From positions 6,550-70,549 of the IMG/VR virus record IMGVR_UViG_3300027804_000064: 64,000 nt of DNA; one strand, 5' to 3'. Below are positions 2,761 through 53,332 of this stretch, one piece after another. The DNA is from a virus. The position numbers and the translations under genes were made by a program. The notes under the pieces are model-generated. The model did no database searches. It was not told the DNA's origin and saw nothing but the letters and a program-made list of their open reading frames with translations. How positions within the stretch are numbered: position 1 is the first letter of the stretch; each line of letters starts with the position of its first letter.

Positions 2761-4266
2761 ATGTCAGCAATACCGCAATCGCTAATTGACCCTGCTTTCA
2801 CTTCCAGTGGGAAGCCGTTCATTTCCACGAACAGGTACGGCACGGGTCGGTACAGTCAGCAGGTATTTAATGAGCAGATGGGGGACGCTGTAACGCAGCA
2901 ACTAGAGGGAACGCCCAAACTCACCCGAGGCGACCGCCGCCGTCCGTCCGTATTGAAATATCCATTGGATCTCGGTTCTGCACAGGTTCCCCATGTCATG
3001 CAGTTCAAGGTGTTTTGGCGATGGGAAGCCAAGGACTTGCGCGAGGGCATGGAATCGGCAAAGGCAGAGTCTCAAAAAAACATTCAAAACTTGCAGACGC
3101 TGGCGAGTCTCATAGACAACGGCGAACTATCACCCGAAATGCTGTATCGCTCGCCCTTGAGCAACGAAAGCATTGCTGCTCTTGAAGGCATGGTGGTGGA
3201 TCCAAACACACTAAAGATCGTGGATCCCAACAGCCGCGACAGCATTGCCACCTTGTTGCAAACGAATCCTGGAAAAGCCAAGCAAATACTTGAGCAAACC
3301 ATCATGTCTGAACAGACACGGCTTTCAAGCATTGAGTCTGAACTTGACGGTGGTGCTGGTAAAGTCGGTCTTGACGAACAAGAGCGTCTTCTTGTGCAAA
3401 ACAGGCTTTCTGAAAATGTTCAGAGAACAGGCGTTGGTGAGTCTGCGATAAAAGGAGCCGCTGCTGGTGGGGTGTTTGGTGGTCTGGTTGGAATGTTGTT
3501 TGGAGGAAAGGGAGCAGCAATTGGAGCGGCAGCAGGAGCAGCAGGCGGTGCCGCTGTAGCAGCAGGAGGAGTGGCAGTCGCAAAAGCATTTTCCACAGAA
3601 GCCGTTTACGATCAAATGGTTTCCGTGTATCTGCCTTTCTGCACGAAGGTGAACAACGAAGACTCGTTCGTGTACGAGGATAGCAACCAAGCACTTGCGG
3701 GTGCGGTGTTTGACGCTACGGGCGGCGATGTACTGCCCGCAGCAGGACAGGCTCTTGAAGCAGGAGCGCAGATCCTTGGCAACAAGTTTGCGCCAGGTGC
3801 AATTCAGTCTGCGCGTGGCACAGTGATAAATCCTCGTCTTGAAAAACTGTTTCGGCAAAAGGACTTCAGAAACTTCTCGTTCTCTTGGGAGTTCTATCCG
3901 CGAAACCGCGATGAAGTGCAGGCTGTCCGCGACATCATTGAAACATTCCGTTACCACGCGCATCCTGCTATGGACAACAAGCAGGGAACGGAAGAAGAGA
4001 ACATGGTGCAGATCATATTGAGAACTCCTGCGGAGTTTGAGGTTCGTTTCCTGTCGTCTAATCCTGACATCAATTCCGCTGGTTTTGTAGAGAACGAGTA
4101 TCTTCCCAAGATCGGTCGCTGCGCGTTGTCCACCATATCGGTTGACTACACTCCCAACTCACTGTTCAGCACATTCGCTGACAACTCACCCACCGCGATC
4201 ACGCTCACGCTGAACTTCAGCGAATTGGGTCTGCTCACACGCGAAACGGTAGACAAGGGCTTCTGA
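2761..4266 (+). CDS. 48: baseplate tail tube cap with large helical/glycine-zipper insertion
   Basis: LKYPLDL, NPRLE.LF...DFR.FSFSW.FYPRN..E, C.L..ISVDYTPN, LTL.FSE. Start at ATG 2761 after AAGGA. Confidence 0.85.
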   Translation: MSAIPQSLIDPAFTSSGKPFISTNRYGTGRYSQQVFNEQMGDAVTQQLEGTPKLTRGDRRRPSVLKYPLDLGSAQVPHVMQFKVFWRWEAKDLREGMESAKAESQKNIQNLQTLASLIDNGELSPEMLYRSPLSNESIAALEGMVVDPNTLKIVDPNSRDSIATLLQTNPGKAKQILEQTIMSEQTRLSSIESELDGGAGKVGLDEQERLLVQNRLSENVQRTGVGESAIKGAAAGGVFGGLVGMLFGGKGAAIGAAAGAAGGAAVAAGGVAVAKAFSTEAVYDQMVSVYLPFCTKVNNEDSFVYEDSNQALAGAVFDATGGDVLPAAGQALEAGAQILGNKFAPGAIQSARGTVINPRLEKLFRQKDFRNFSFSWEFYPRNRDEVQAVRDIIETFRYHAHPAMDNKQGTEEENMVQIILRTPAEFEVRFLSSNPDINSAGFVENEYLPKIGRCALSTISVDYTPNSLFSTFADNSPTAITLTLNFSELGLLTRETVDKGF

Positions 4267-5174
4267 TGGCTTACTTCTCAAAGTTTCCCATACTTCAGTA
4301 TCCTGTGCGGGACGGCAACGAATTTCGTTTTGCCTTTGTCGCAAACTTGCTGCGTAGGGTGGGATTGAGCGAGGACATGAAGGGCGCAGACGGCGCGTTC
4401 ATAGAGTACAACATCAAGGACGGTGAACGCCCCGAACACATTGCAGAGCGGATATACGGCGATCCGTCATTCCATTGGTTGGTAATGCTCACGAACGACA
4501 TTGTTGATCCGTATCACGGATGGTACAAGTCAGGAAACGCACTTGAGAAATATGTGCAGAGCAAGCACGGCGGCAAGTCCGTGTTCATCGGCACCACTGC
4601 TGACGGGTATTTCTACAGCAAGTATGTGGGCACTGGCTCTTCTCTGTCGCAGGGATCGCTGTCCGCTGCCGTTGTTGACTACACTCCCGAACTGTGCAAA
4701 CTCACGGTGCGCGGTGGAGAATTCTCTGAAGGCAACGCCACGCTCACGGTGAGCGGTTCCACGGCTTACACTGTGCAGATATTCCGCGTTGAGCCGTCTT
4801 TTACCGCAGTGAATCACTTTGAGTTTCAGCACAGCAGCGGCATCTGCGGAGCAAACGATGAGTTCACCGTTGACCCGTTGAGCCAGCAGAACTCAAGTTT
4901 CTCCTTGGTTGGCGGCGTGGTAGGAGCAACCGCGGACGAGTATCCCAATACGAGCCAAGGACTCACCTATCAGTCGGTTTCAGGAACCGTTGATTTTTGG
5001 GAAACCTACATCGGCAGGTACATTGGCGTGTCAGGCGACAAGGTGAATACCTATGCTGTAAGCAATCTGCTCCACGAAACCCGCGTGAATGACGACAAGA
5101 GAACCATAAAGATTCTGCATCCTCGTTTCAAGCGTGAAGCGTTGACTCAACTAGAAGCACTGTTGAGAGTCTAA
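4266..5174 (+). CDS. 53: baseplate wedge subunit with internal insertion
   Basis: YFSKFP, Y.IKDGERPE.IA.RIYGD...HWLV...N.IVDP, N..KR.IKIL motifs. Confidence 0.9.
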   Translation: MAYFSKFPILQYPVRDGNEFRFAFVANLLRRVGLSEDMKGADGAFIEYNIKDGERPEHIAERIYGDPSFHWLVMLTNDIVDPYHGWYKSGNALEKYVQSKHGGKSVFIGTTADGYFYSKYVGTGSSLSQGSLSAAVVDYTPELCKLTVRGGEFSEGNATLTVSGSTAYTVQIFRVEPSFTAVNHFEFQHSSGICGANDEFTVDPLSQQNSSFSLVGGVVGATADEYPNTSQGLTYQSVSGTVDFWETYIGRYIGVSGDKVNTYAVSNLLHETRVNDDKRTIKILHPRFKREALTQLEALLRV

Positions 5175-5175
5175 T

Positions 5176-6498: not shown

Positions 6499-7601
6499 TG
6501 AAAGCATTTCTAGGAAAAGACGGATTTGTGTGGTGGCACGGTGTCGTGGAGGACATTGGTGATCCGCTGTACCTTGGACGGTGCCGTGTTCGTGTGTACG
6601 GATTCCATGTTCACGACAAGAAAGAACTGCCTACCGAGTGCTTGCCGTGGGCGTATCCCATGCAGCCTATCACCAGTGCGGCTCTGTCGGGAATAGGGCA
6701 GTCACCGACAGGTTTGCTTGTTGGTTCCCATGTCTTTGGATTTTTCCGTGACGGGGACGAGGCGCAGGATCCTGTCATCATTGGATCGTTTGGTGGCGTT
6801 CCGCTGAAGGCAGCAGACACGAACGCGGGTTTCGCTGATCCAAGCGGTCAGTATCCTGCAAAGCAGAGCGATGTGGACGACAAGAAATTCCCACTGGGAG
6901 TTTCGGTGGTTGGCGAGCAGGACACCAACAGGCTTGCCCGCAACAACGACAAAGATCAGATGAAATCCACGGTTGCTGCATACAAGGTGTCAACGGTGCA
7001 GACAGAAATACAAAGCACCCCATCCATAAAGAGTGCTTCCACTTGGAGCGAGCCTGTCACACCATACGCAGCAGAGTATCCGAAGAACCATGTTCGGTAC
7101 ACCGAAAGCGGTCATGTGGAAGAGTGGGACGACACGCCAGGCGCAGAACGCATTCACCAATTCCACAAGTCAGGCACTTTCACGGAAATCGGAAACGGGT
7201 GGGAAGGCAATCCTGACGGAACCCGCGTGCAGCGCATTGTTGGCGATGACTACGAGATCGTACACGGCAACAAGAAGATTCATATATCTGGTTCCGAAGG
7301 CTTAAATCTGGTGGTGGACGGAGCAGTGAATCTGACCATCAACGGTGGCGGCAACATACAGATAAACGGCAACACCAACATACTTGCATCGGACAATGTG
7401 AATTTGCAGATTGAGGGAACCCTAAAGGCATCAGGCAAGCAGATGGAGTTCTACGCGGACGGTGACATCGGCTTCTCTGGCAGATCAATATCGTTCATCA
7501 CGGACAGCAATGTAATGGTGTTGCAGCAAGGCAAGCGTATTGAAGTCAATTCTGGAAAACCTGCGATCACTCCGCAGCGGGTGGATGTAAAGGGGGGCTG
7601 A
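6498..7601 (+). CDS. 5: baseplate central spike (OB-fold plus beta-helix, no lysozyme domain)
   Basis: F.WW.GVVED..DP..LGR.RVR..G.H, LPWA, V.GFF.DG..AQ.P, YP.NHV..TESGH..E.DDTPGAERI, then V.G repeats. Confidence 0.92.
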   Translation: MKAFLGKDGFVWWHGVVEDIGDPLYLGRCRVRVYGFHVHDKKELPTECLPWAYPMQPITSAALSGIGQSPTGLLVGSHVFGFFRDGDEAQDPVIIGSFGGVPLKAADTNAGFADPSGQYPAKQSDVDDKKFPLGVSVVGEQDTNRLARNNDKDQMKSTVAAYKVSTVQTEIQSTPSIKSASTWSEPVTPYAAEYPKNHVRYTESGHVEEWDDTPGAERIHQFHKSGTFTEIGNGWEGNPDGTRVQRIVGDDYEIVHGNKKIHISGSEGLNLVVDGAVNLTINGGGNIQINGNTNILASDNVNLQIEGTLKASGKQMEFYADGDIGFSGRSISFITDSNVMVLQQGKRIEVNSGKPAITPQRVDVKGG

Positions 7602-7603
7602 AG

Positions 7604-8607: not shown

Positions 8608-8629
8608 GAGAGAACCACAGGATCACCCC

Positions 8630-9265: not shown

Positions 9266-9278
9266 TTAAGGAAACGCA

Positions 9279-12371: not shown

Positions 12372-14363
12372 ATGCCAGTAAACGGGGTATCCCGTGCGTA
12401 TCTTGACACCGCAGGGGGAACCATACAAGTTGGCAACCCCGATTTTTATCTTGACGGATTACCTGTAGCAATGCAGGGAAATCCTGTGCAGAGTCACGGA
12501 AACAATGAACACTCGTCCGCCGTGATCGTGAACGGCTCACCCAATTTCCTGATCAACGGAATTCCTGTATGCACATCCGCAAGCCAAGCCAGTTGTGGTC
12601 ATCAAGCAACGGGGTCATCCACATTCACGGTGGGAACATCAAGCCGTGGCAGCGAAAGCCGTAATCCTGGCACGGCTCCGCAGTTTTCATACACTCCACC
12701 CGAAACGCCCAATCCTATTTGGGTTGCCACTTGGCATCCTCCTGTTTCTGGAAAAAACAGAAGCATTGCCGCAGAGACATACACAACTGAAGACTTTCAA
12801 ACATACGATTTTGTGAAACCACTAATATGGCTCACTGCACCGAACAGCAGTTCTTCGTATATTGATGACTCTGCTCAATCGTACTTCACGAAGATAGGCA
12901 CAATTACATCGTACAGAAACAGGATAAACGGTATTGTAAACGGATTGAACAGTCTTCCTGAAGGTATGCGTGCGTTGGCTCCGTGGTATTACTGGAACGG
13001 ATACGCATACTATGAAAACGAAACAAAGAAGAGAGGTGATTTTGCTGCTTTTGTGGCTGCTAATCCTGATTACAACACCTATCCTGGAATTTGCGGTGAT
13101 CGTGCCACTGGCATCTTTTTGTTTAATCGCAAATCAGATAATCTGCGAGGAGCGGGCTGGACGCTTGCTTCCATATGGGGAGCAACTGCTATAAATCAAA
13201 TTTCTGAAGACTGGAAAGTGATGTGTTCTGGTCTAAAAAATCGCGGAGCGAACATAGACTACCTTGTTTTTGACACGGAAGGGTTTCCTGGAAATGCGTT
13301 CACCGATTACCCTGTGGGAAATCGTCAAGCCGCCCTAGAATCAATGGAAAGCGATCCTCGGGCGCAGCAAGAGTGGTACGGGGCAAGACCACTTAAAACG
13401 GTGCTGACGCAAGACGGAAAGTATCCTACGAACAGTGCATTGCGTGCTGCCACCAATCGACATCCACAGACTGAACCAAGTTACATCTATTGGAACGGCG
13501 GTCTTTCTTCCATACGGAACGCCAGCATGACATACTGTTTCTACGAAACAGCAAAGCAGAATTATCCTGATATTGGCTTGAGTAATTACGAGTCATTCAA
13601 AACCACCGACAAGGATTGGGCATATGATCCGTATGGACATCCTGTGTATCAAGAAAATACCGTGGGTGATGGCGCAGCACCGTATTTGTACGCATCATGG
13701 AACAGTGATACTGCGTGGGTAGTAGATCCATACGACAATACTCGCATCATAAGAAACAACACCAATACATTTACGGACACACTTCCGCGATTCAAAAATA
13801 GTATATGGAATTGTTTTTTGGTGGACATACAGCAAGTGAGAGCAATCAAGCGAGCAGATTCAGCGGCTTATCTTCGTCCGTGGATTCGTCCTCGCGGTTG
13901 GGCGGGTGATGCTGGCTTCATAGTAGGAATAACATTTGGGCAGCAGTATTCTCCTGCAAGCGGCGAGAAATTTTATTATGAAGTAATTCGCCATTGTTCC
14001 GTGCTTGGAGCAGAGCATTTTTACTATTGGAATTCAGCGGATACGAGTGCAACCACAAATCCAGAAAATATGTCTAGAAATTGCACTGAATTGAATGGTG
14101 TGATGAAAGAAGTAAATGATTTATTGGGAGGATATTCACCAGACACGGTTACAAAAAACCGCATTTCGTTTAACACGGATTATGTGGTGAGCGGAACCAA
14201 AGCCGCAGGGGGCGACAACAAGGACAAGTATGTGTGGCGAATCACGCCCAAGCCTGGTCTTACGCTCATAAGTGAAACAGGGCGACCGCTCACGGTGGAC
14301 GCGGACGGGGGCGCATGGCTCGTAACCTCGTCTGTCGTGATACCTAAATATTCTGTTCAATAA
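12372..14363 (+). CDS. PAAR spike-tip protein (gp5.4-like) with about 550-aa C-terminal extension
   Basis: N-terminal ~90 aa: D.AGG.I..G....DG.PVA..G.PV.SHG...H....I..GS....ING.PV......SCGH..TGS; then a Pro-rich linker and an aromatic-rich globular region. Confidence 0.8.
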   Translation: MPVNGVSRAYLDTAGGTIQVGNPDFYLDGLPVAMQGNPVQSHGNNEHSSAVIVNGSPNFLINGIPVCTSASQASCGHQATGSSTFTVGTSSRGSESRNPGTAPQFSYTPPETPNPIWVATWHPPVSGKNRSIAAETYTTEDFQTYDFVKPLIWLTAPNSSSSYIDDSAQSYFTKIGTITSYRNRINGIVNGLNSLPEGMRALAPWYYWNGYAYYENETKKRGDFAAFVAANPDYNTYPGICGDRATGIFLFNRKSDNLRGAGWTLASIWGATAINQISEDWKVMCSGLKNRGANIDYLVFDTEGFPGNAFTDYPVGNRQAALESMESDPRAQQEWYGARPLKTVLTQDGKYPTNSALRAATNRHPQTEPSYIYWNGGLSSIRNASMTYCFYETAKQNYPDIGLSNYESFKTTDKDWAYDPYGHPVYQENTVGDGAAPYLYASWNSDTAWVVDPYDNTRIIRNNTNTFTDTLPRFKNSIWNCFLVDIQQVRAIKRADSAAYLRPWIRPRGWAGDAGFIVGITFGQQYSPASGEKFYYEVIRHCSVLGAEHFYYWNSADTSATTNPENMSRNCTELNGVMKEVNDLLGGYSPDTVTKNRISFNTDYVVSGTKAAGGDNKDKYVWRITPKPGLTLISETGRPLTVDADGGAWLVTSSVVIPKYSVQ

Positions 14364-18061: not shown

Positions 18062-21000
18062 ATGGATCCAAAGAACATAATACTCAACACCGAAGCGGAA
18101 GCACTTGAAGACATTCTGTCTCCTTTTATTGAGGAGCAGTTTCCGTCATTCATGCGTGCAGACTACCGCAAATTGGTGCTGTTCATCAAGTCGTATTATG
18201 AGTGGTTGGATGAAAAGGGAAACGCTGGATATGTGCTTGGCAAACTAGACACCATCTATGACGCTGACCGCAGCCTTGATGAGTTCTATTCCCATTTCAA
18301 GAACACCTATCTGCTCACCTTTCCCGAGGTGCTTGCCACGAACGCAAGCGGCAACAAGCCCAACAAGAACACGCTGCTGAAGAAGATTCGTGACTTCTAC
18401 GGCAACAAGGGAACCGAAAGCGCGTACAAGTTCCTGTTCCGTGTGCTGTACGACAGCGACTTGGAAATCTATTATCCCAAGGAAGACATTCTGAAGGCTT
18501 CGGATGGTCAGTGGCTTGAACCGAAGTCGGTGAAGACCACTTCCACCAACGGCACTGCCCTGTTCAGCGGCAAGAACGGGCGGTTGGCGCAATACTCTGG
18601 TACGCAGGTGTCCGCGTCTGCGTTCATTGAAAGCGTGGTGCAGTACTCCTTCAACGGTCTGCCTGTCACGGAGTTCTTCATTTCAGACATAAACGGCACA
18701 TTCCTGCCTGGTCAACAGGTGTACATTGAGCAGGGCAGCGATGAGTGGGTGGAAACAGCGTACTCCGTTCTCGGAGACTTCTTTGTTGAGATTCCTGGTG
18801 ACGGGTATCGCGTAGGTGACACCGCCACCGTGATTGACGCAAACGGCGTGGGCTTTTCGGCAAAGATCGACCAAGTGAGTTTTTCGGGTGGCGTAAAGAA
18901 GATCGGCATTGCCAACTCGGGACTCAATTATTCGGGTGACCTTGTGCTGAACATCTTCAGCGACAGCGGTGCGCGATCCGCCAAGGTTGTTGCCCTGCGG
19001 AGCGCGGTCACGAATTATCCTGGCTACTTCTCTGGCAATCGCGGAAAGATTTCTTCAAACAAGAAGATCCAAGACGGACACTACTATCAGGACTTTTCGT
19101 ATGTGCTGAAGGGCGAGGTGTCCTTTGATTCGTATTTTGATCTGCTCAAGAGCATCATCCACCCTGCGGGCATGAGGATGTTTGGATCGGTGCTGTTCAA
19201 GAGTGAAATAGACAACACACTCACCTCGTCTGCACAAGCCACATATTTCCTCACTCCCGTGATTGGTCAGTACACCCCGTACACCACGGGAACCACCATT
19301 GATCTTCGGAACAACGGAGTCACCGCGTCTGGATATTGGCTTGGCGCAACAGGTGACCTGTATCCACTTGGGTACAACCCGTACATCGGCAGCACTGCAC
19401 AGGTAGGACCGAACGGCAGCACCACGCCCAACGGCACGGTGTTCGTTGGCACATCCCTTGGGTACACTTGGTGCTATGTGCCAGAAAGCGGTATCACAGC
19501 ACACAACCCAATCGGTGCGCCTCTTGGCAGCACTGCGTCTTGGACGCTTGGTCACGAACGCGGTCCTGATCCTGACACGATCAGCGGACTTGTGCTGTGG
19601 CTGAAGCCAGAGAACATCGGCGTGTGTGGTTCGGTGGCAAACGGCGCAAGCATGGATGTGTGGCGCGATGCTTCTCCGTCTGCAAACCACGCACTGCCTC
19701 CCAAGTGGGGACGGTGGACAACCGATCCTGCGTACTCGGGAGTCACCATTGACGCGCTTCGTCCCGTGCTTCAGACAGGAATCACGGGTATTTGCTTCAA
19801 CGGTGGAGTGATATATTCGCCGCAGAGCGTGTGGACAAACAACGGCAAGACCCTTGGTGGTATTCCTGGCTTTACATTCGGAGCATCAGGAAACACAGCA
19901 GGCAAGATACTCACGGGTCAGCATTTCTATCTCACGAACGGCATCACGCTCACGGACGACATGGATGTGTTCATGGTGTATCGCTCCACAAGCGACAGCC
20001 CTGCTCGGGGAATCGGCTTGGTTTCAGCGGCAACTGCGCTGCTTGGAGTCACGAACGACACCGTTTTCTTCAACCGTTCGTACAACCAAACAGACAGGAC
20101 TGCTGCACAGCAGACATCGGAGTATTACCGAATACTGCCTGACGGCACTCCACAGTATCCCAACAACGCCACCGTGCAGACTGGACTTGTGGGATTCCGT
20201 CCTGCTGGCGGCAATTTTGCGTTCCCGCAGAACACCCTTGCATACGATCCCCATGTGTCGGGTGCGTGCTTGGGCATTGTGGTGGGAGAGTGGCGGCGCA
20301 GCAACAATCGCATAGAGACATTCTTGAATGGTGACGCTGCACTGAACAGGTCGCGCTCCACAGGTATCGCGGTTGCGGATCTCGTGTCTCCAAACAATGA
20401 AGACTTCTTGGTACGAAACGGATTGGTGCTTGGAATTGATGGAAAGAGCGGTCCGTCTAACAATGAATACACTGCAAATGCTTACGACAATCTTGTCCAT
20501 CGCTATGTTTATCAGGGAGAATCTGAATTTTTCAGACGGGGAACGGCGATAGGCAACGAAACTTTTGGCACAAGCAAGGTGTATTGGGCTGATACGGTAT
20601 CATCCACGACCACAAACGCTATTGGAAGAGGTCTTGGTTCCATTACATTTGATTCCGATCCGTGGGGCAGAAAATCGCTAGTGTTCGACAGCAGACCCCG
20701 AATTTTCCCTTTCCATACAGATGATCAGCGATTTCCAAAGATTGATCTGACACAGGCTCCGTACAACTCACTTGTTACACCATCAGGTTTGAGTTACAGC
20801 GCAGTATACGGTCAATTTGTTGGAGTCACATGGGGACGGGCTGGGTCTTTTGCAAGATCAAATACTGGATACGGGGGTTTTTTGGTTGGCAGATATTCTG
20901 GAGGCATAGGAACCAATGCACCAATAATTCCCATTGACGAAACACAGATTTACAGATTCTCGGTGTGGATGAACCGTAAGGAATTGGGTGTTCCGTGGAC

Positions 21001-22186
21001 TGGCTTGAGCATGGGAAACGATGACCGTCCAGCCATTAGTAATACCAACACTATAAACGGAAATATGTATTTTGGTGTTCACGGAAACGGTTACCCATCC
21101 ATAAACAATGATGGTTTTGGATATACTCTTGACCGAGTTATTCCTAGAAATGGGGGTAATCCCAACTGGAATCATTATTTCTTTGTTGCTCCACCACAAA
21201 GGGTTCCGACAGGGTACGACGAGAACAAATGGTATTTGTATGTGTACTATATGTACCCATCGGGTTCTCCCACAGGACCAGCGTTTTCCCATAGTGCAAC
21301 AAGCGGTAGATACACCACAGACGGCGTGTCTAGCAGACTAATACCTTATGGTAGTGCTGGTGACGCACAGTGGGTTCCTGGCACTACCTATGCTGCTTTA
21401 CGCTCTTGGGCTTTTTATCCTGTGGACGGAACTCCGCGGCATCAGATTTTTGAACCGCGCATAGACCTTGTGGACGGCACGGAGCCGTCAATTGCCGAAC
21501 TGCTGAACGGCAGTGCGTATCGGCTGAAGAATCGTGACGGAATCGTTCAGCCTGTGTACGCCATGAATCAACCTGTGTACGCAACCGCAGACATGGGGTA
21601 CTTCCGTTTTGATGGATACACATCGGGTGACCACTTTGAGATAGATCCTGCTCCTGCTGTTTCGGTGGGAACTCCTCGGCAGAATCGCTTCACTGTGGAA
21701 ACAGTGTTCTACCCCACACCCAATCCAGTGTCATCGGTGACCACCCATTTTATTCTAGGCTCTTCCACCAACGGAATTCGGCAGTATCTCGGGTACGATC
21801 TTCTGAAGAAATCCGTCAAGGCGGTGCTATGGGACGGAACGAATGTACAGGTTGTTCAGACACCCGACAATTCTGTTCCTCTGAACACATGGGCGCACTG
21901 CGTGCTTCAGATAGACGGGGTTTCGGTTCAGATATGGATCAACGGACAGCAAAAACTTAATACCTCTGTTTCTCTTTCGTCTGTGCTGCCGTGGGATGTA
22001 GAGTCGGACGGCACTCGGGGACGGTGGACACTTGGATTCCTTGACCGCTTCTTTGCAGGTGACGGTCCAACCAAGGACAATTGGTTCCGTGGTCGGATAT
22101 CCGATTTCCGTGTGTATGACCGTATACTGCTTCCGACAGAAATACAGCAGAACTTCAACTCAATTCGTTCACGATACGAACTGTAA
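18062..22186 (+). CDS. 7: baseplate wedge initiator (gp7-like) with appended LamG/concanavalin-like domains
   Basis: I..QFP.F....Y..LV.FIK.YYEW, K.I.DFY..KGT..AY.FLFR.LY, IQD..YYQ.FSY.LK, HPAG..MFG; C-terminal G.I..FRVYDR.L...EI.QNF LamG motif. Confidence 0.8.
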   Translation: MDPKNIILNTEAEALEDILSPFIEEQFPSFMRADYRKLVLFIKSYYEWLDEKGNAGYVLGKLDTIYDADRSLDEFYSHFKNTYLLTFPEVLATNASGNKPNKNTLLKKIRDFYGNKGTESAYKFLFRVLYDSDLEIYYPKEDILKASDGQWLEPKSVKTTSTNGTALFSGKNGRLAQYSGTQVSASAFIESVVQYSFNGLPVTEFFISDINGTFLPGQQVYIEQGSDEWVETAYSVLGDFFVEIPGDGYRVGDTATVIDANGVGFSAKIDQVSFSGGVKKIGIANSGLNYSGDLVLNIFSDSGARSAKVVALRSAVTNYPGYFSGNRGKISSNKKIQDGHYYQDFSYVLKGEVSFDSYFDLLKSIIHPAGMRMFGSVLFKSEIDNTLTSSAQATYFLTPVIGQYTPYTTGTTIDLRNNGVTASGYWLGATGDLYPLGYNPYIGSTAQVGPNGSTTPNGTVFVGTSLGYTWCYVPESGITAHNPIGAPLGSTASWTLGHERGPDPDTISGLVLWLKPENIGVCGSVANGASMDVWRDASPSANHALPPKWGRWTTDPAYSGVTIDALRPVLQTGITGICFNGGVIYSPQSVWTNNGKTLGGIPGFTFGASGNTAGKILTGQHFYLTNGITLTDDMDVFMVYRSTSDSPARGIGLVSAATALLGVTNDTVFFNRSYNQTDRTAAQQTSEYYRILPDGTPQYPNNATVQTGLVGFRPAGGNFAFPQNTLAYDPHVSGACLGIVVGEWRRSNNRIETFLNGDAALNRSRSTGIAVADLVSPNNEDFLVRNGLVLGIDGKSGPSNNEYTANAYDNLVHRYVYQGESEFFRRGTAIGNETFGTSKVYWADTVSSTTTNAIGRGLGSITFDSDPWGRKSLVFDSRPRIFPFHTDDQRFPKIDLTQAPYNSLVTPSGLSYSAVYGQFVGVTWGRAGSFARSNTGYGGFLVGRYSGGIGTNAPIIPIDETQIYRFSVWMNRKELGVPWTGLSMGNDDRPAISNTNTINGNMYFGVHGNGYPSINNDGFGYTLDRVIPRNGGNPNWNHYFFVAPPQRVPTGYDENKWYLYVYYMYPSGSPTGPAFSHSATSGRYTTDGVSSRLIPYGSAGDAQWVPGTTYAALRSWAFYPVDGTPRHQIFEPRIDLVDGTEPSIAELLNGSAYRLKNRDGIVQPVYAMNQPVYATADMGYFRFDGYTSGDHFEIDPAPAVSVGTPRQNRFTVETVFYPTPNPVSSVTTHFILGSSTNGIRQYLGYDLLKKSVKAVLWDGTNVQVVQTPDNSVPLNTWAHCVLQIDGVSVQIWINGQQKLNTSVSLSSVLPWDVESDGTRGRWTLGFLDRFFAGDGPTKDNWFRGRISDFRVYDRILLPTEIQQNFNSIRSRYEL

Positions 22187-22197: not shown

Positions 22198-22719
22198 ATG
22201 GCAGAAGTAACAGAACTAGACTACGCAGCACCAGCAGAACAGTACAGTTCCTCCCCTGTTTCGCTTGGGCGTTTTGGAGCATATGTTCGCGCCGAACTTG
22301 GTTCCACGGCTGCTGTGGCTAACGCAGATTTTGTAAATCATGCACGGAGTGACACAGACAATCCTTCGTATTCTTTTCAGGGTGTGCTGCACGAAGTCAT
22401 AGTTTTCAATCGCAAGTTGACTGAAGTTGAGCGTCAACAGGTATATCAGTATCTGTCTTTCAAGTACGGACTTGACGACACCTTGCCTGATTCGTTCACC
22501 AAGTCTCGCAATAGTGCGTATGCAGCAGGATTGACCTATTGGGAAATACGGCATCACCCAAACACAGAAGGGCTGTCCACCATTCCCGCGGGCATATGCT
22601 TTGGCGGAATCACACTACAGAATTTCGTACATTTCCCCGACACGCTGTACAAGTCCGCAGGCACGGTGCTGTCCAACGGAACTGTGCTGTCGGGCGATAC
22701 ATACAGTAATATTGGATAA
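22198..22719 (+). CDS. virion protein carrying the C-terminal part of a LamG-like domain
   Basis: LGR...F.G.L.EVIVFNRKLT..ERQQV..YL..KYGL motif. Confidence 0.6.
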   Translation: MAEVTELDYAAPAEQYSSSPVSLGRFGAYVRAELGSTAAVANADFVNHARSDTDNPSYSFQGVLHEVIVFNRKLTEVERQQVYQYLSFKYGLDDTLPDSFTKSRNSAYAAGLTYWEIRHHPNTEGLSTIPAGICFGGITLQNFVHFPDTLYKSAGTVLSNGTVLSGDTYSNIG

Positions 22720-37930: not shown

Positions 37931-39808
37931 ATGAGCAAAAAACTAATACTTCTAGACAGTTCAGGACAAGTGGTGTCAACCGAAGAGAATTACGCCATCG
38001 GGGATTTTGTTCCAGTCTCTGGCTTGAACGCTTTGGTGGTGGATTCTTCGATTGAACCGCTGGTGGTTCCCGTTACAGTAACAGAGCAGTCTATTGATGT
38101 AGACGGAGTTCGCACTGGCGGAACCGTGACCCGACTTCTGTCCTTGCAAAACATCTCCCCCATAACAGAGCAGGTACTTACAGGAACGGTATACGGACAG
38201 TTTCAAATCAACGAACAAGCGGTGCAGTCGCAGTTCATTCCTGTGTTGATTAACGGTCTTGCGCTTGGCGGATTGTCCGCGGACTCGTATCTACCCACAG
38301 TGGGAACCATCGGTGTTTCTGGTCCTGAACTGGGAAACAAGTCATTGCAGTTCAAAGGCTCCTACCTTGATACCGACACAAAAGCCGCAGGCGTTCGGTT
38401 GCCTGCGTTTTCTACCACAACAACGCCGTATTTCATGCTGTCGGGATTCCTGTATTTTGAGAATGAGCCAAGCAACAATTACGATCCCATCATTCTTACT
38501 CGCAGCGCAGATGGAGTGAATGCAAGCACAAACGACTCGTTCAGACTTGAATACGACACCAGCAGCAATCAGTTGCAGTTTCACTACTCTACTGCAAGTT
38601 ACGCCAGTGCGGGTTACCAGAACATACTGAATGTGTGCCCTGCGAACGGTGTGACTTTGAACCAATGGCATCAGTTTGCCATTGCGTACTCCAACCAAGG
38701 TGGTTCCGCTTCAATTGCATCGTATTGGAATGGCACTCGTCACGCACAGGCTAGCGGACTCTCTGGAAACATTCGCAACAGCACTGGTTACATGATGTTT
38801 GGCAGTGGTGCATCTGGCGACAAGCCTCTAAAGGGATGGCTTGAACACACTATTCTTAGTGGAGGCGGCGTGTCTCTTGCTCTGCGTGAATTCACTCACG
38901 GAGCGACTGCCCCAGTATCAACAGAGCAGTTTGCTGGAGACTATACGATATACGCTCTGTCCATGAACGGAACTCTTGACACGAGTTACTTTCCTGTTGC
39001 AAACTCAAATCGGGTAGTTTCGACTGTTTCGTGGGACAATCGTTTTGGGTCGCAGATCGGCGTAGGAAACATTGTCCGCGAAACTACATCGGCTGGCGGA
39101 ACTGCTGCCATGTTCACGGGTATTTGCGGAGGTCACGCTGCATCAGGCGGCAGTGCTGGATACTTGTTTGGAGTGAATAGTGGCGCGTGCATGGTGATTT
39201 CTGCTGTTCAAGAAGTTTCTGGTGGAGCAAGCGCAAACTCTCAGATGCGGTCAAGTCTGGCGGATTTTTCTGCACAATATCTTCTAGGATGTTGTGCGAT
39301 GAGCGGAGTGTGTGGAGGTGGTGGAGATTTTCCGCAGTTGCTCTCCGTTGCACAGGTGGGTTTCTGTGGTGACAGATTCTCTTTCTTGCCGATAGACTCC
39401 AATATATCTTCTTTGAGACTGATTTACGATGATTATGTTATAAACGGGAAAACTGGACCTGTAAGTATTGCAGACTACAACGGCACTCTGTATACCTTTG
39501 GTTCTGCTGGCGTGCAGGCACTGTATCAGGATGTAGTTACATACCGAAACACAGCAAACAGTGTTTTTGGATCTGTTAAAACGGCAATTGCGACAAAGAG
39601 CAGCGTAACTGCACTGCGTGAACTGGGTGGTGTGGGCACAGAAGGAACAGTCATTAAACTTGCGCCAGAAATAAGAAAAACTGGATCTTTGCTGTTGAGC
39701 GGCAAGGCAAGGGTCACAGCAAAAACCAATTTCCCAGAAACATACAGTAAAGCCAAGAGTGCAGAGGTTCCGACAATTTCAGATATAGAGCCTTGGGAAG
39801 AGTTTTAA
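37931..39808 (+). CDS. virion protein with LamG-like domain
   Basis: SLQF.G, LNQWH.FAI.Y, Y.NG, .G.......LKGWL motif. Confidence 0.6.
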   Translation: MSKKLILLDSSGQVVSTEENYAIGDFVPVSGLNALVVDSSIEPLVVPVTVTEQSIDVDGVRTGGTVTRLLSLQNISPITEQVLTGTVYGQFQINEQAVQSQFIPVLINGLALGGLSADSYLPTVGTIGVSGPELGNKSLQFKGSYLDTDTKAAGVRLPAFSTTTTPYFMLSGFLYFENEPSNNYDPIILTRSADGVNASTNDSFRLEYDTSSNQLQFHYSTASYASAGYQNILNVCPANGVTLNQWHQFAIAYSNQGGSASIASYWNGTRHAQASGLSGNIRNSTGYMMFGSGASGDKPLKGWLEHTILSGGGVSLALREFTHGATAPVSTEQFAGDYTIYALSMNGTLDTSYFPVANSNRVVSTVSWDNRFGSQIGVGNIVRETTSAGGTAAMFTGICGGHAASGGSAGYLFGVNSGACMVISAVQEVSGGASANSQMRSSLADFSAQYLLGCCAMSGVCGGGGDFPQLLSVAQVGFCGDRFSFLPIDSNISSLRLIYDDYVINGKTGPVSIADYNGTLYTFGSAGVQALYQDVVTYRNTANSVFGSVKTAIATKSSVTALRELGGVGTEGTVIKLAPEIRKTGSLLLSGKARVTAKTNFPETYSKAKSAEVPTISDIEPWEEF

Positions 39809-41759: not shown

Positions 41760-42628
41760 TGTTCACCAATTTCTACAACGGTTCCATTCGCCGCATGGTT
41801 GTGGCTTTCGGCTCACTGTTCAATCAAATATACATTGACAAGGCAGAGAGCGGTGGCACGAAAACCATGCTTGTCCCCATCTCGTATGCTCCGAAGGAGA
41901 AGTACAAGGTGCGGCTTGCAGGCGATCCGAAGTTTCAGAACCCCAACCAGATCGTGCTGCCACGCATGGCGTTTGAGATCACGGGGTATGTGTACGATTC
42001 CGCACGAAAGCGCAACAGTCTTTCCCGTCATGTGGTTCGTCCCACAACATCCAACCCAAGCGGAGTGGACTACACTTTCGCGGAAGTTCCGTACAACATA
42101 GATTTCTCCCTGTACATCTATGTGCGGAACATGGAAGACGGCTTGCGTATCGTGGAGCAGATACTGCCGTTCTTTTCTCCTGAATTCGTGGTCACGGTGA
42201 ATTTTGATGACATCAACAAGAAGGTGGATGTTCCCATCTACCTGAACTCCGTGTCATCCGAGGAAGATTACGAAGGCGATTTTGAAACGCGGCGGTCAAT
42301 CATCTTCACGCTGAACTTCACGATGAAGACCTATCTGTTCGGCGCAAAGAAGAACTACAAGGAAATCCGCGTGGTTCAGGCAGCAATGTGGAACAGCAAT
42401 GTGTTTGACGACACATTCGTGGGTGGAGTCACTTACTATCCAGGAAACACCACCGACACGCCCCACTACGGAAATCTCATTACGGGAATCTGCGGACCGA
42501 GCGGAGCAAGTTCCAACGCAAACGACTACGGTTCGTATGCAAAGGTGTATCAGGCGCAGAGCGGCGGTGGAACCACATACACGACAGGAATGGCTGCTGG
42601 AGGCATTACCGTAGACTGGAATCTTTGA
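41759..42628 (+). CDS. 15: tail sheath stabilizer and completion protein
   Basis: FY...IR..V.AFG.LFN, VPI.Y.PKEK, LPRM.FE, VPYN, IVEQILPFF.P, DYEGDF..RR.I..TL.F. Confidence 0.95.
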   Translation: MFTNFYNGSIRRMVVAFGSLFNQIYIDKAESGGTKTMLVPISYAPKEKYKVRLAGDPKFQNPNQIVLPRMAFEITGYVYDSARKRNSLSRHVVRPTTSNPSGVDYTFAEVPYNIDFSLYIYVRNMEDGLRIVEQILPFFSPEFVVTVNFDDINKKVDVPIYLNSVSSEEDYEGDFETRRSIIFTLNFTMKTYLFGAKKNYKEIRVVQAAMWNSNVFDDTFVGGVTYYPGNTTDTPHYGNLITGICGPSGASSNANDYGSYAKVYQAQSGGGTTYTTGMAAGGITVDWNL

Positions 42629-44891: not shown

Positions 44892-46979
44892 ATGGCATTT
44901 AGAGTAAGCCCTGGCGTAAGCATCAAAGAGGTTGACCTGACCACAATCGTCCCCGCAGTAGCCACCACACCTGGTGGTTTCGCGGGTTACTTCCACTGGG
45001 GTCCAACGGATGAGATCGTCACCGTGACCCAACAGACCGAACTTGCAAATATTTTCGGCAAGCCGTACAGCGACAACTATGTGGATTTCTTTACCGCAGG
45101 AAACTTCCTGTCGTATGGCAACAACTGTCAGGTTGTGCGCGTGGTTGGCTCCACCGCAAACAACGCCAGTGTCACGAAGGCAGGCGTGTGCTACGCCGCC
45201 GCGTGGGGTTCGTTTGTTGTAAAGAACGAGACAGACTTCAACTCCAGCAGCACCGTAACCACTGCTGCTGCCACCACTCTGTTTGCCGCGAAGTATCCTG
45301 GTGCGCTTGGATCGTCCCTGAAGGTTGTTGTCACCAACGGCACAGGAAACACGGGCGCAACTCTCGCAGGAGCCGCTGCACAGGGAGCCACTTACCTTAC
45401 TCTGCTCACGGGAACAAGCACCGACAAGAAGTACTTCTCCGTGGGTGACGAAATCACATTCTCGGACGGAACATCGGTTGCAGTCTCTGGTCTGCGCCGC
45501 ATTGTAAGCGGAACCACTTCTGCGCCTGGATACGGCGACCGAATCACCGCCACATACAAAGACTTCTTTGACATTACCAGTGGCTACAACGCCGCAACCG
45601 TAAATGTTCCTCTGACCACAGGTCTTTCGGCTCACCACATCTATGTGGAATTGGAGACTCTGCTTCCTGTTGCACAGAGCAGCGATGCTCCCGTGACCAT
45701 CAAGAGCGCATACGCAAAGAAGATTGGCTCCAACGCCACGGTTACCCCATACGCTTCGGATGCTGGCGGCGCAGGCGATCTTGTGAATGTGCTTGTGCTT
45801 GACAAGGACGGGCTGTGGACAGGTACGCAGAACACGCTCATTGAGAAGTTTGAAGGGTTGTCACGCGCATCGGACGCACGCAAGTTTGACGGCAGCAGCA
45901 ACTACTACAAGACCGTTCTGAACGAGCAGTCTGATTATGTGTGGGCACTGTCTGCTGATCTTGCCAACAATGGTGCAAGCGCAGCCACCTTCACGAACTG
46001 GACCGCCATCGGTCCTGCTCTTGCAACTGAAACAGCCGTTGGAGCAGGAGTCAACTCCCTGCACCTCACGGGTGGTTCGGACTCCGCGCCAACGGATTCG
46101 CTCCGTTGGTCACAGGGTTGGAGCAAGTTTGCCGATGCGGACGGAGTGGATGTCTCGCTCCTTCCGATGGGCAACGCTTCGGTCACCCTCGCCCAACTGG
46201 TTGTGCAGAATGTGTGCGAGAAGCGTTTGGACTGCATGGCGTTCGTGTCGCCTCTACAGAACGATGTAGAGAACACCCTGCCGTATGCTGCTCTGAACAA
46301 TATCAAAACCTTCCGTGACAGTGAGTTCAGCCTGAACTCGTCTTACGCGGTGATCGACAGCGGTTGGAAGTACCAACTTGACACCTACAACAACCTTGTT
46401 CGCGTTCTTCCCCTGAACGCCGACATTGCTGGTCTGGTTGCACGCACGGAGTTCACGGACGAGGCTTGGTTCTCGCCCGCAGGCTTCAACCGTGGTCAGA
46501 TTAAGAATGTGGTGAAGTTGGCGTACAACCCCACACAGGAAGCCCACCGTGACGAACTGTACACCCGTCAGGTGAACCCTGTCGTGTCGTTCCCAGGCGA
46601 AGGCACCATCCTGTTCGGTGACAAGACTGCACAGACCCGCCCAAGCGCGTTTGACCGCATCAATGTTCGCCGCCTGTTCATCATTCTTGAGAAGGCAATC
46701 GCCACAGCGTCCAAGTTCTTCCTGTTTGAGCAGAACGATGCGTTCACTCGCGCACAGTTCAAGAACTTGGTGGTTCCCTTCCTCAAGACCGTTCAGCAGC
46801 GGCGGGGCATCACCGACTTCAAGGTGGTGTGCGATGAAACCAACAACACGGGTGAAGTAATTGACCGCAACGAGTTCGTGGCAGACATCTTCGTGAAGCC
46901 CACTCGCAGCATCAACTTCATTCAGTTGAACTTTGTCGCAACCAAGACTGGTGTAAACTTCAGCGAAGTCGGGGCTTGA
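44892..46979 (+). CDS. 18: tail sheath protein
   Basis: SPGV..KEVDLT, F.WGP, A.YPG.LG, WFSPAG.NRG, GDKT...PSAFDRINVRRLF, KP.RSINFI.LNFVAT. Confidence 0.97.
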   Translation: MAFRVSPGVSIKEVDLTTIVPAVATTPGGFAGYFHWGPTDEIVTVTQQTELANIFGKPYSDNYVDFFTAGNFLSYGNNCQVVRVVGSTANNASVTKAGVCYAAAWGSFVVKNETDFNSSSTVTTAAATTLFAAKYPGALGSSLKVVVTNGTGNTGATLAGAAAQGATYLTLLTGTSTDKKYFSVGDEITFSDGTSVAVSGLRRIVSGTTSAPGYGDRITATYKDFFDITSGYNAATVNVPLTTGLSAHHIYVELETLLPVAQSSDAPVTIKSAYAKKIGSNATVTPYASDAGGAGDLVNVLVLDKDGLWTGTQNTLIEKFEGLSRASDARKFDGSSNYYKTVLNEQSDYVWALSADLANNGASAATFTNWTAIGPALATETAVGAGVNSLHLTGGSDSAPTDSLRWSQGWSKFADADGVDVSLLPMGNASVTLAQLVVQNVCEKRLDCMAFVSPLQNDVENTLPYAALNNIKTFRDSEFSLNSSYAVIDSGWKYQLDTYNNLVRVLPLNADIAGLVARTEFTDEAWFSPAGFNRGQIKNVVKLAYNPTQEAHRDELYTRQVNPVVSFPGEGTILFGDKTAQTRPSAFDRINVRRLFIILEKAIATASKFFLFEQNDAFTRAQFKNLVVPFLKTVQQRRGITDFKVVCDETNNTGEVIDRNEFVADIFVKPTRSINFIQLNFVATKTGVNFSEVGA

Positions 46980-49465: not shown

Positions 49466-49493
49466 ATAATGTGCCGTAAAAGGAGAAGCACAC

Positions 49494-51823: not shown

Positions 51824-51877
51824 TCTTCAAGTTTAGTTTCTTTCGGTCACAGACCGTTCACAAATAAGGAGTAGGAA

Positions 51878-53332
51878 ATGGAAAACAAGTTTCTAACCGA
51901 ACAGGCTCTCCGCAAGTGGAAGCCCGTTCTAGACCACAAGGACATGGCTCCCATCGCGGACGCTCACAAGCGTGCCACGATTGCCACACTGCTTGAGAAC
52001 CAAGAGAAGGCTATCAAGGAGCAGATGCTCGTTGAGGCTTCGCCAACCAACAACCTTGGTGCTGGTATGTCTCCTCTTGCCAATGGTGGAGAGAACGCTT
52101 CTCTCCGTGGCTACGATCCAATTCTCATCCAATTGGTTCGCCGCGCCATGCCCAACCTGATGGCTTACGATATCTGCGGCGTTCAGGCTATGTCGGCTCC
52201 GACAGGTCTGATCTTCGCAATGCGTAGCCGTTATCAGAATCAGACGGGCACCGAGGCGTTCTATCAGGAACCCGCTGCTAACTTCAGCGGTTCGGATAGT
52301 GTCACGCAGAGCGGTTTCTCTGGCGGTACAGCAGGTGGTGGCGCAACAGGCACCATTGCCAACTTTGGTCCTGGTACTGGCGTTGATCCGTTCTTCGGAT
52401 ACCAAGGCACATCCACCAACCCCACAATTGGCAGCGGTTTGACCAGTGGTTCGGCTCTCCGCACGAACTTTGCTGAAGGCGAAGCACCAAACGAGATGGC
52501 ATTCAGCATTGAGCGCGTTGGCGTTCAGGCTGCTACTCGTATGCTTGCTGCTTCTTACAGCATTGAACTGGCTCAGGATCTCAAGGCTGTTCACGGTCTT
52601 GACGCTGAGACAGAACTCGCCAACATTCTCAGCACGGAAATCCTTGCTGAAATCAACCGCGAGGTCGTTCGCAATGTCTACCGTTGCGCCAAGTTGGGCG
52701 CACAGCAGACCGATCTGTACTACAAGACGGTTGCTGGCGGTTTGAGCAGCGGCGCGGCATACGGCGGTGTCTACGATCTCATTCAGGACTCGGATGGTCG
52801 TTGGAGCGCGGAAAAGTTCCGTGGTCTAATGTTCCAGATTGAGCGTGAGTGCAACCAGATCGCCAAGGACACCCGCCGTGGCAAGGGTAACTTCATCATC
52901 TGCTCGGCAGATGTTGCCAGTGCCCTCGCAATGGGTGGCTTCCTGAACATCAGCCCCGCGCTGAATGTCAGCCTTGATGTTGACGACACGGGCAACACCT
53001 TCGCAGGTACGCTCAACGGCAAGATCAAGGTGTACATCGACCCCTATGTTGATGTCACCAACGGAACCGCTCCAAACTTCGTCTGCGTTGGATATAAGGG
53101 CACCAGCCCATATGACGCTGGTATGTTCTACTGCCCATATGTCCCGCTACAGATGATGCGTGCGGTGGATCAGACCACCTTCCAGCCCAAGATGGCGTTC
53201 AAGACCCGCTACGGCATGGTTGCGAACCCCTTCGCGGAAGGAAGCAATGTTGGAATTGGTTCGCTCAAGTCTCGCTCCAATGTCTACTACCGCATCTTCA
53301 AGGTGGACAACCTCCACGGCGTTGCATCGTAA
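51878..53332 (+). CDS. 23: major capsid protein
   Basis: KW.PVL, LLENQE, DP.LI.LVRRAMP.L.AYD.CGVQ.M..PTGLIFAMR, ELAQDLKAVHGLDAE.EL.NILS.EI.AEINRE, YCPYVPL, FQPK..FKTRYG...NPF. Confidence 0.98.
   Translation: MENKFLTEQALRKWKPVLDHKDMAPIADAHKRATIATLLENQEKAIKEQMLVEASPTNNLGAGMSPLANGGENASLRGYDPILIQLVRRAMPNLMAYDICGVQAMSAPTGLIFAMRSRYQNQTGTEAFYQEPAANFSGSDSVTQSGFSGGTAGGGATGTIANFGPGTGVDPFFGYQGTSTNPTIGSGLTSGSALRTNFAEGEAPNEMAFSIERVGVQAATRMLAASYSIELAQDLKAVHGLDAETELANILSTEILAEINREVVRNVYRCAKLGAQQTDLYYKTVAGGLSSGAAYGGVYDLIQDSDGRWSAEKFRGLMFQIERECNQIAKDTRRGKGNFIICSADVASALAMGGFLNISPALNVSLDVDDTGNTFAGTLNGKIKVYIDPYVDVTNGTAPNFVCVGYKGTSPYDAGMFYCPYVPLQMMRAVDQTTFQPKMAFKTRYGMVANPFAEGSNVGIGSLKSRSNVYYRIFKVDNLHGVAS

Follow-up and report, generated by a model that had tools for sequence, protein, structure and literature searches.

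A Glycine-Bounded Thr/Ser/Cys Motif in Outer Virion Proteins of Uncultured T4-Like Phages, a Candidate Site of Phage-Encoded Glycosylation

The outer virion proteins encoded by a 64-kb stretch of an uncultured T4-like myovirus (the window; positions 6,550 to 70,549 of IMG/VR record IMGVR_UViG_3300027804_000064, a 70.5-kb contig with a completeness rating of 39%) carry an excess of short units of the form G-x-[T/S/C]-[G/A]. The excess recurs in related loci, and larger contigs of these relatives encode a protein, GT2-TPR, that combines a family 2 glycosyltransferase (GT2) domain with TPRs. We propose, with a probability of about 0.45, that the G-x-[T/S/C]-[G/A] units, together with the repeats of a collagen-like protein encoded in the window, are acceptors for the GT2-TPR enzyme of this lineage; judged from the sequences, glycosylation of this phage's virion is plausible.

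An earlier note on this DNA had described the simple tripeptide G-x-[T/S/C] as a virion-wide candidate sequon. We translated 48 open reading frames (ORFs) and compared each protein with shuffles that kept its composition, leaving the collagen gene out of the virion totals. The peptide strings quoted in that note were present wherever we checked them, in a subset comprising SGICG, PGICG, TGITGICF, AGICFGGITL, TGICG, SGVCG, VGFCG, TGICGPSGAS, AGVCY, and SGFSGGTAGGGATG. The virion proteins contain 148 G-x-T against 118.8 expected (1.25-fold), 138 G-x-S against 121.6 (1.13-fold), and 18 G-x-C against 8.7 (2.06-fold), giving a pooled count of 304 against 249 (1.22-fold, z 4.1). The non-virion proteins have the same ratio (49 against 39, 1.25-fold), and [TSC] is enriched 1.30-fold directly before Gly and 1.20-fold directly after it, as high as at the +2 position. 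The literal three-residue motif is weak and specific neither to the offset nor to the virion. The word "virion-wide" goes too far: the excess is confined to about six proteins, and many structural proteins are at or below expectation. What survives of the proposed enrichment is a narrower form that is found in excess in outer proteins only.

This form, G-x-[TSC]-[GA], occurs 86 times against 38.1 expected (z 7.9) in 16 outer proteins, the collagen gene excluded; the line between outer and inner proteins was drawn from T4 homology after the per-protein scores had been seen, and the outer set retains the unenriched 833-, 964-, and 211-residue proteins. Counts are flat in 16 inner virion proteins (tube, portal, neck, hub, gp6, gp25, gp5, scaffold, and protease; 7 against 6.9) and in 13 non-virion proteins (3 against 3.3). 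For Thr, the form G-x-T-[G/A] was set before the test on this window, and it is found 45 times against 18.5 expected; G-x-T followed by any other residue is found 88 times against 82.4. When the tripeptide is split by its middle residue, the whole excess is located in G-hydrophobic/Ala-[TSC] (137 against 84), and G-other-[TSC] stands at 1.01-fold; the patterns with a hydrophobic x were defined post hoc on this window. Tandem units, G-x-[TSC]-G-x-[TSC], number 16 against 4.7 to 5.8 expected, a count reached in 0 of 500 shuffles. Other residues at the acceptor position are not enriched, as seen with G-hydrophobic-[DEKRQ]-G (3 against 6.8) and G-hydrophobic-[AGN]-G (5 against 8.1). The main carriers are the gp53-like, gp7-like, gp8-like, 651-residue, and 625-residue proteins, with a milder excess in gp15, gp18, and the 1048- and 1661-residue proteins; the tail tube, portal, gp6, gp25, gp5, and the 833- and 964-residue proteins are at or below expectation.

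Local composition and paralogy were considered as causes and rejected. Shuffling within blocks of 12 to 40 residues, which preserves local composition, moves the expectation to 42 to 45 and leaves z at 6.4 to 6.9, and 0 of 1000 such shuffles reach 86. Inflation of the counts by paralogous domains is not seen either: no pair of virion proteins matches at a BLASTP E value of ≤1e-3. When the contexts of 79 sites were compared, the top-scoring pair reached an E value of 7e-4 in a tiny database.

Cysteine stands out within the motif. The virion module has 94 Cys residues, 18 of them with Gly two residues before; G-x-C-G is found 7 times against 0.85 expected (1/2000 shuffles) and G-hydrophobic-C-G 7 times against 0.27 (0/2000 shuffles). 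The fraction of residues that lie inside G-x-[TSC]-[GA] in the outer proteins is 9/71 for Cys, 45/1049 for Thr, and 32/1022 for Ser; the corresponding values in relatives, whose sequences are kin to one another and so not independent, are 109/936, 697/15166, and 577/15908. A Cys residue is thus three times as likely as a Thr or Ser to be part of the motif. Among tripeptides, GIC ranks first (p 1.5e-5, or ~0.1 after correction for ~8000 tripeptides). A DNA-level repeat behind G-I-C-[G/F] was rejected, since the six sites differ in codons, and because of these differences the Cys signal belongs to the protein level. At aligned positions in relatives, the cysteines of G-x-C give way chiefly to Ser (frequency 0.21) and Thr (0.11), compared with 0.08 and 0.05 for other Cys; some G-x-C positions become Ala, Val, or Ile. 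The T/S/C interchange that the earlier note had read from unrelated proteins is therefore borne out at aligned positions, including a tandem in the gp15-like tail that is kept in 55/56 homologue rows.

The window consists of a T4-like myovirus virion module followed by replication genes, as recognized with Pfam and PHROGs. These identify homologues of gp26/51, gp48, gp53, gp5, PAAR, gp25, gp6, gp7, gp8, and a tail-collar fibre, and further of gp14, gp15, terminase, gp18, gp19, gp20, prohead protease, scaffold, and gp23. The nearest cultured major capsid proteins are those of Synechococcus T4-like phages (~55% identity). The positions of motif-bearing features and of the region in which the candidate enzymes are found are listed in Table 1.

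Table 1. Positions of motif-bearing features in the window, of the last gene on the contig, and of the sugar island in a relative
Feature	Position	Strand	Match or remark
gp53-like baseplate wedge protein, 302 aa (T4: 196 aa)	4266..5174	+	Pfam PF11246
Collagen-like protein, 214 aa	7960..8604	+	Pfam Collagen PF01391, E 3.2e-16
PAAR protein, long C-terminal extension	12372..14363	+	Pfam PAAR_motif
gp7-like baseplate protein, 1374 aa, LamG-like domain	18062..22186	+	Pfam Baseplate_wedge, Laminin_G_3
173-aa protein	22198..22719	+	No Pfam or PHROG match
gp8-like baseplate wedge protein, 788 aa	22731..25097	+	PHROG 438, E 2e-63
651-aa protein, presumed fibre	30284..32239	+	No Pfam or PHROG match
625-aa protein, LamG-like domain	37931..39808	+	
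gp15-like tail-sheath stabiliser (gene 41759-42628), site G-I-C-G-P-S-G-A-S	42485..42511	+	Pfam T4-gp15_tss, residues 5-213 only
gp18-like sheath (gene 44892-46979), residues 86-409	45147..46118	+	Aligns to T4 gp18 residues 88-360
gp23-like capsid (gene 51878-53332), Gly-rich loop Q-S-G-F-S-G-G-T-A-G-G-G-A-T-G	52307..52351	+	
gp44-like clamp-loader gene, start only, cut by contig end	63513..63998	+	Contig ends at window's end
Sugar island in a relative, L156 (G001:C1:1-20000)	about 5378-15003	-	Corresponds to region just past window position 64000

We compared the individual proteins with their families, drawing on 226 related loci from three IMG/VR scans; all family sums are from relatives filtered at <80% identity. 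The extra segments of the gp53-like protein are motif-rich. It has G-I-C-G at nucleotides 4839 to 4850, segments inserted relative to T4 account for three of its nine G-x-[TSC] sites, and G-x-[TSC]-[GA] is found 5 times against 0.8 expected (0/500 shuffles); across 24 homologues, G-hydrophobic-[TSC] reaches 93 against 32.2, mostly in non-conserved columns. The gp7-like protein combines a count of 12 against 4.2 (0/500 shuffles) with a conserved G-V-C-G at nucleotides 19619 to 19630, for which ENIGVCG is the commonest form in relatives, and its family of 22 homologues has 388 G-hydrophobic-[TSC] against 196.8 expected. Next to it, the 173-residue protein contains six G-x-[TSC] against 2.5 expected (family G-hydrophobic-[TSC], 26 against 7.5), and its G-I-C-F-G-G-I-T site swaps with G-[IV]-S-F in relatives. 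The gp8-like protein has 5 G-x-[TSC]-[GA] against 1.9 (13/500 shuffles), and 33 homologues together have 236 G-hydrophobic-[TSC] against 144.1. The strongest excess is that of the 651-residue protein: 34 G-x-[TSC] against 19.1 (z 4.3), 13 G-x-[TSC]-[GA] against 4.5 (0/500 shuffles), and 6 of the 16 tandem doublets. The PAAR protein has G-I-C-G at nucleotides 13086 to 13097, a site covered by only three homologue rows. The collagen gene lives up to its description as a G-x-T polymer, with a Pfam Collagen match, 27 G-x-T triplets against 8.2 expected, and 27 G-x-[TSC]-[GA] against 4.9; from its sequence, its product would be the most obvious acceptor candidate.

The 625-residue protein has 14 G-x-[TSC]-[GA] against 2.9 expected (0/500 shuffles), with C/S/T exchange in relatives. 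Three G-hydrophobic-C-G sites (nucleotides 39119 to 39130, 39305 to 39316, and 39359 to 39370) fall within its residues 397 to 479, and 19 homologues contain 219 G-hydrophobic-[TSC] against 90.1 expected, 122 of the 219 in columns that are filled by 50% or more of the sequences. The same region of this otherwise Cys-poor protein (39119 to 39370, plus strand) holds six Cys within 81 residues. Several of the six are Ser, Thr, or Ala in relatives, and with these replacements the cluster is neither a conserved metal site nor a conserved disulfide.

Lineage-specific or variable parts carry most of the sites in the gp15-like and gp18-like proteins. Eight of nine G-x-[TSC] sites of the gp15-like protein are in residues 223 to 289, a lineage-specific C-terminal tail that forms a conserved module of ~70 residues in which five G-x-[TS] sites are fixed. 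The best-conserved site of all, G-I-[S/T/C]-G-[P/A]-[S/C]-G-A-[S/N], is here; in the tandem G-x-[STC]-G-x-[SC], the first acceptor is S, T, or C, and the second comes as P-S or A-C. The tail (42425 to 42628, plus strand) also shows three similar strand-like units, G-G-x-T-[YV], and a conserved W-[ND]-[ILF] end. In the gp18-like protein, 16 of 18 G-x-[TSC] sites are in the variable residues 86 to 409, outside the Pfam sheath domains (residues 31 to 84 and 425 to 683 only); the aligned T4 residues are those that we take to be the outward-facing domains of gp18. The gp23-like protein as a whole is not enriched (G-x-[TSC], 9 against 7.5; G-x-[TSC]-[GA], 3 against 1.5). Five of its nine G-x-[TSC] sites are in residues 146 to 189, and the G-F-S-G-x-T tandem of the loop is kept in 3/6 homologue rows.

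The excess persists across the lineage. Summed G-hydrophobic-[TSC] counts are 1493 against 796.5 expected in nine outer families, 217 against 299 in ten inner baseplate and hub families, and 84 against 75.5 in eleven non-virion families. Each of the 38 related loci that supply 2500 or more residues of outer proteins is enriched in G-x-[TSC]-[GA] (1.44- to 4.08-fold), including loci whose gp6 identity is as low as 36%. Most instances in the gp53, gp8-like, and 1048-residue families fall in non-conserved columns, so that density is kept as positions change. Conservation of the acceptor residue itself is non-discriminating (G-x-[TS] versus elsewhere: T, 0.48 versus 0.40; S, 0.41 versus 0.39).

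Outer proteins of four control phages gave G-x-[TSC]-[GA] ratios of 1.05 (T4), 0.93 (S-SSM7), 1.27 (Mosig), and 1.40 (S-RIM8), and G-x-T-[GA] ratios of 0.86 to 1.29. The Gly/Thr content of these proteins is equal to or above that of the window, T4 excepted; S-SSM7 and Mosig, with Gly/Thr at least at the window's level, have tandems at 0.69-fold and 0-fold. The excess is thus not general to fibre and baseplate proteins of T4-like phages. A generic property of Gly/Thr-rich fibres was accordingly set aside as unsupported by T4, S-SSM7, and Mosig, with S-RIM8 weakly in excess. [TSC] directly preceding Gly is enriched in every phage tested (1.13- to 1.29-fold). A GT2-TPR profile matched in none of the four complete control genomes and did match the positive control, the relative G001. 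By record annotation, the virion modules of S-SSM7 (105 to 113 kb, L250) and Mosig (39 to 73 kb, L251) contain or adjoin sugar genes, carbamoyltransferase genes, and several genes for 2OG-Fe(II) oxygenases.

The earlier note had pointed to the rest of the genome for a glycosyltransferase. This phage's own contig supplied none: a search for GT2 was empty, and nearly all window ORFs and four upstream ORFs lack a glycosyltransferase by Pfam, the contig-wide search having been aimed at GT2 and not at other glycosyltransferase families. Candidates do appear in relatives, past gp44. Beyond the point where our contig ends, the order in relatives is gp44, gp62, two small ORFs, and a 212-residue GT2, the last present in 45 of the 47 related loci that extend at least 3 kb past gp45. 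A glycosyltransferase/sugar island starts 2.5 to 4.7 kb past gp45; it is bracketed by the 212-residue GT2 and the 402-residue GT2-TPR, and its content differs between close relatives. The G001 island encodes HAD, nucleotidyltransferase, DUF3431, UDP-galactopyranose mutase, and epimerase/dehydratase proteins, and GT2-TPR closes the block. Pfam matches among 20 ORFs of G001:1-20000 were to sugar-nucleotide enzymes, HAD, DUF3431, DUF7796, and replication genes, with no glycocin precursor, ABC transporter, or thiol-disulfide gene among these ORFs (small ORFs were not examined).

GT2-TPR was found in 3/5, 3/3, and 4/5 of the larger related contigs searched (10/13 overall) and has thousands of metagenomic homologues. 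Four further fragments, which stop short of the region, had no GT2; ten contigs of distant lineages, each 11 to 28% complete and so uninformative, had no match to the GT2-TPR profile; and GT1 (PF00534) was found in 0/5 large relatives. The N-terminal GT-A domain of GT2-TPR matches Pfam PF00535 at 41.9 bits against a cut-off of 23.3 bits, TPR matches cover residues 180 to 240, and the Asp-x-Asp motif is present as D88-A-D90-D91, invariant in 27 homologues. An AlphaFold2 model built from 27 sequences (pLDDT 87.5) has a strand/helix GT-A core at residues 3 to 163. SunS and ThuS occupy ranks 1 to 6 of its Foldseek matches in the PDB (E 4e-15 to 2e-12, 391 to 398 aligned columns), followed by TarS at 4e-7; sequence matches in the PDB are GmaR, ThuS, and SunS, and of the NCBIfam models TIGR04195, the SunS family equivalog, scores best. 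The 212-residue GT2 resembles the N-terminal domain of gp108 from phage Che8 (33% identity, E 3e-23), the first gene of a three-glycosyltransferase block; GT2-TPR shows no such resemblance to gp108. In a set of 50,697 phage records, matches to the 212-residue GT2 came from 63 actinobacteriophages only (39 Mycobacterium, 22 Gordonia, and 2 Actinoplanes), including Omega, in which the homologue directly follows the major capsid gene.

BclA3 is a collagen-like glycoprotein of the exosporium. SgtA of Clostridioides difficile, a soluble protein made of a GT-A domain and four TPRs, puts O-GlcNAc on Thr in the G-P-T repeats of BclA3 and accepts substituted Ser, according to the passages cited here (PMC7157674). 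By architecture alone, GT2-TPR of the relatives has the same domain order, and the window has a collagen gene with 27 G-x-T triplets. Unlike in the SgtA-BclA3 pair, the presumed acceptors are for the most part lone triplets or pairs of triplets scattered across globular outer virion proteins, Cys included, and the relatives' enzyme gene does not adjoin the collagen gene and lies outside the window's contig. The collagen gene itself is an ordinary member of the Thr-rich collagen-like proteins (PF01391; Bacillus BclA type); this likeness covers that gene only and leaves the isolated G-x-[TSC]-[GA] units elsewhere unexplained.

A second comparison is with SunS, ThuS, and PalS (TIGR04195; PDB 7MSN, 7MSK, and 7MSP), which include the best full-length fold matches of GT2-TPR. 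These enzymes are described as S-glycosylating a Gly-flanked Cys in G-C-G-[G/S], ThuS also O-glycosylating Ser (PMC6405829, cited passages), a chemistry that fits a T/S/C nucleophile. The differences are that sequence identity is 14 to 17%, that the G001 island has no glycocin gene context by Pfam, and that the acceptor here would be G-x-C-G in large proteins rather than G-C-G-[G/S] in a small helical peptide.

Virion glycosylation was reportedly described by Freeman et al. in 2023 for the actinobacteriophages Che8, Corndog, and Myrna. The 212-residue GT2 conserved in our relatives resembles the N-terminal domain of Che8 gp108; unlike in the window's outer proteins, the motif is missing from the Che8 capsid and tail-tube proteins that are reported to be glycosylated, and hosts and morphotype differ. 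In the papers as cited, actinobacteriophage glycosyltransferases modify the phages' own capsid and tail proteins (PMC12363180, PMC11256854), and Che8 gp110 is called the essential enzyme (PMC12363180). Within these literature passages, glycosylated phage particles are established for actinobacteriophages only, and the literature searched does not describe glycosylated virions for any T4-like phage.

If our proposal is correct, the "minimal collagen-like" units dispersed over the outer proteins, G-x-[T/S/C]-[G/A] with x usually hydrophobic or Ala, would serve as acceptors for a soluble protein glycosyltransferase that the phage encodes. The contig breaks off exactly where the glycosyltransferase block of the relatives follows, and we infer that this phage has the island too: after gp45, gp44, and gp62, a conserved GT2 and a SunS/ThuS/SgtA-like GT2-TPR would bracket a strain-variable sugar-nucleotide block, the enzymes would act on virion proteins, and the motif would be what they recognize. 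While still in the cytoplasm, before the particle is assembled or as it is being assembled, Thr, Ser, or Cys adjoining Gly would receive a sugar from GT2-TPR, on the hydroxyl of the first two or the thiol of the third, and the second glycosyltransferase and the sugar genes of the island may extend or vary the glycan. We extend this tentatively to a widespread clade of uncultured aquatic T4-like phages, which might sugar-coat exposed faces of baseplate, sheath, neck, and fibres at G-x-[T/S/C]-[G/A] through a SunS/SgtA-like cytoplasmic GT2-TPR, S-linked Cys included, the glycan varying by strain through swapping of islands.

Several observations weigh against glycosylation by GT2-TPR. The literal tripeptide is enriched only 1.22-fold, a ratio equaled by non-virion proteins; the patterns with hydrophobic x are post hoc, and the outer/inner division followed the scores. 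The enzyme is expected from relatives rather than seen on this phage's own 70.5-kb contig, and neither the collagen gene nor the fibre genes of the lineage adjoin the island. GT2-TPR falls below the TIGR04195 cut-off (31 versus 350 bits, only residues 3 to 95 aligned), and G-C-G, the core of the known SunS-type acceptor G-C-G-[G/S], is found 0 times against 0.88 expected. The 212-residue GT2 has no BLASTP match to Che8 gp109 or gp110, and the Che8 capsid and tail-tube proteins, which are reported to be glycosylated, have one G-x-[TS] site each. An AlphaFold2 model of the gp15-like protein was of low confidence (pLDDT 40.5, 28 shallow sequences) and gave no exposure map. Sites are positionally conserved in the 625-residue family, the gp15 tail, and part of gp18, and S-RIM8 has a weak excess without the enzyme (G-hydrophobic-[TSC]-G, 13 against 4.7). 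The modification itself is argued from sequence and model evidence.

An alternative that we regard as a serious possibility, if short of an even chance, is a purely structural motif, in which Gly turns would delimit short beta-strands or hairpins, or which would represent vestigial collagen-like or polyglycine-II-like triplets, in Gly/Thr-rich add-on domains of the lineage's baseplate, sheath, and fibres. T/S/C interchange would then stem from the need for a small residue, and the relatives' sugar island would be directed at something else, for example the host surface, a different protein, or DNA. The conservation of many positions, 122/219 in the 625-residue family and the five fixed G-x-[TS] of the gp15 tail module, fits a structural role, as do the G-x-C positions that exchange with Ala, Val, and Ile and the enrichment of [TSC] before Gly in all phages tested. 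The island is distant from the structural genes (>55 kb from the collagen gene in window gene order), and cyanomyovirus glycosyltransferases are read in the cited passages as modifiers of the host surface or DNA (PMC12801897). A structural origin does not readily account for controls whose homologous proteins are as rich or richer in Gly/Thr/Ser and show no excess (S-SSM7, 0.93-fold; Mosig, 1.27-fold), for sites that are not paralogous, or for the gp53, gp8-like, and 1048-residue families that hold motif density while positions shift. Charged residues or Asn, Gly, or Ala are not enriched in the acceptor position, Cys is three times over-represented there relative to Thr and Ser, and the relatives' enzyme belongs to a protein-modifying fold family. 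The structural alternative nevertheless stays alive because of the conserved positions, the weak S-RIM8 signal, an enzyme that is not on the contig, and a modification argued from sequence and models.

Less is to be said for two other explanations. That the sites are really modified, only not through GT2-TPR glycosylation (by some other modification or cross-link), or that the collagen-like protein alone is glycosylated, appears unlikely: no other modifying enzyme was found by Pfam in the 70.5-kb contig, and the scattered sites have the same G-x-T-G form as the collagen unit, with an enrichment limited to outer proteins. It is true that SgtA action was demonstrated on collagen repeats and not on scattered sites (PMC7157674, cited passages), that the collagen gene has its 27 triplets, and that the scattered sites are linked to the enzyme solely by their likeness to one collagen unit. 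Chance or an artefact of amino-acid composition is largely refuted, and we consider it very improbable. The small literal excess, the equal non-virion ratio, and the rise of the GIC p value to ~0.1 upon correction would suit it, but the observed G-x-[TSC]-[GA] count was not attained in any of 1000 shuffles, whether of whole proteins or within blocks, G-x-T-[G/A] exceeds its expectation (45 versus 18.5), and the excess recurs in 38/38 related loci and is absent from controls.

If G-x-[T/S/C]-[G/A] is a true acceptor, it would provide a short sequon for protein glycosylation in bacterial viruses that can be read from sequence, as well as a natural case of mixed O- and S-glycosylation on large proteins. 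The strain-variable sugar islands of aquatic myoviruses would gain a function, that of dressing the particle in a variable glycan coat, which would affect adsorption, particle stability, and recognition by hosts or grazers.

Other features of the contig deserve mention. The 6.5 kb 5' of the window (L158, G000:C1:340-6568) encode gp32 and three large ORFs of 420, 589, and 598 residues without a Pfam match. A 222-residue protein (15161 to 15829, plus strand), likewise without a Pfam match, is encoded between the PAAR/263-residue genes and gp25; it has a hydrophobic N-terminal stretch and seven Cys, including C-R-C and C-C-H-W-C. A dCMP/cytidine deaminase-family protein (54406 to 54957, plus strand) lies between the uvsY-like and uvsW-like genes.

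The heptamer CTAAATA (once CTATAAATA) is found 15 to 31 nucleotides 5' of several virion genes, with copies at approximately 8599 to 8607, 14341 to 14350, 34760 to 34768, 40082 to 40090, 46982 to 46990, and 49460 to 49468; five of six window copies are ≤80 nucleotides upstream of gene starts. It looks like the late-promoter core of this lineage. The T4 late consensus TATAAATA has a single window copy (8600 to 8607) and none in L156 (G001:C1:1-20000). CTAAATA also stands 5' of both ORFs that precede the 212-residue GT2 in G001 (3 copies against 0.88 expected, 14/200 shuffles), no more than a weak lead.

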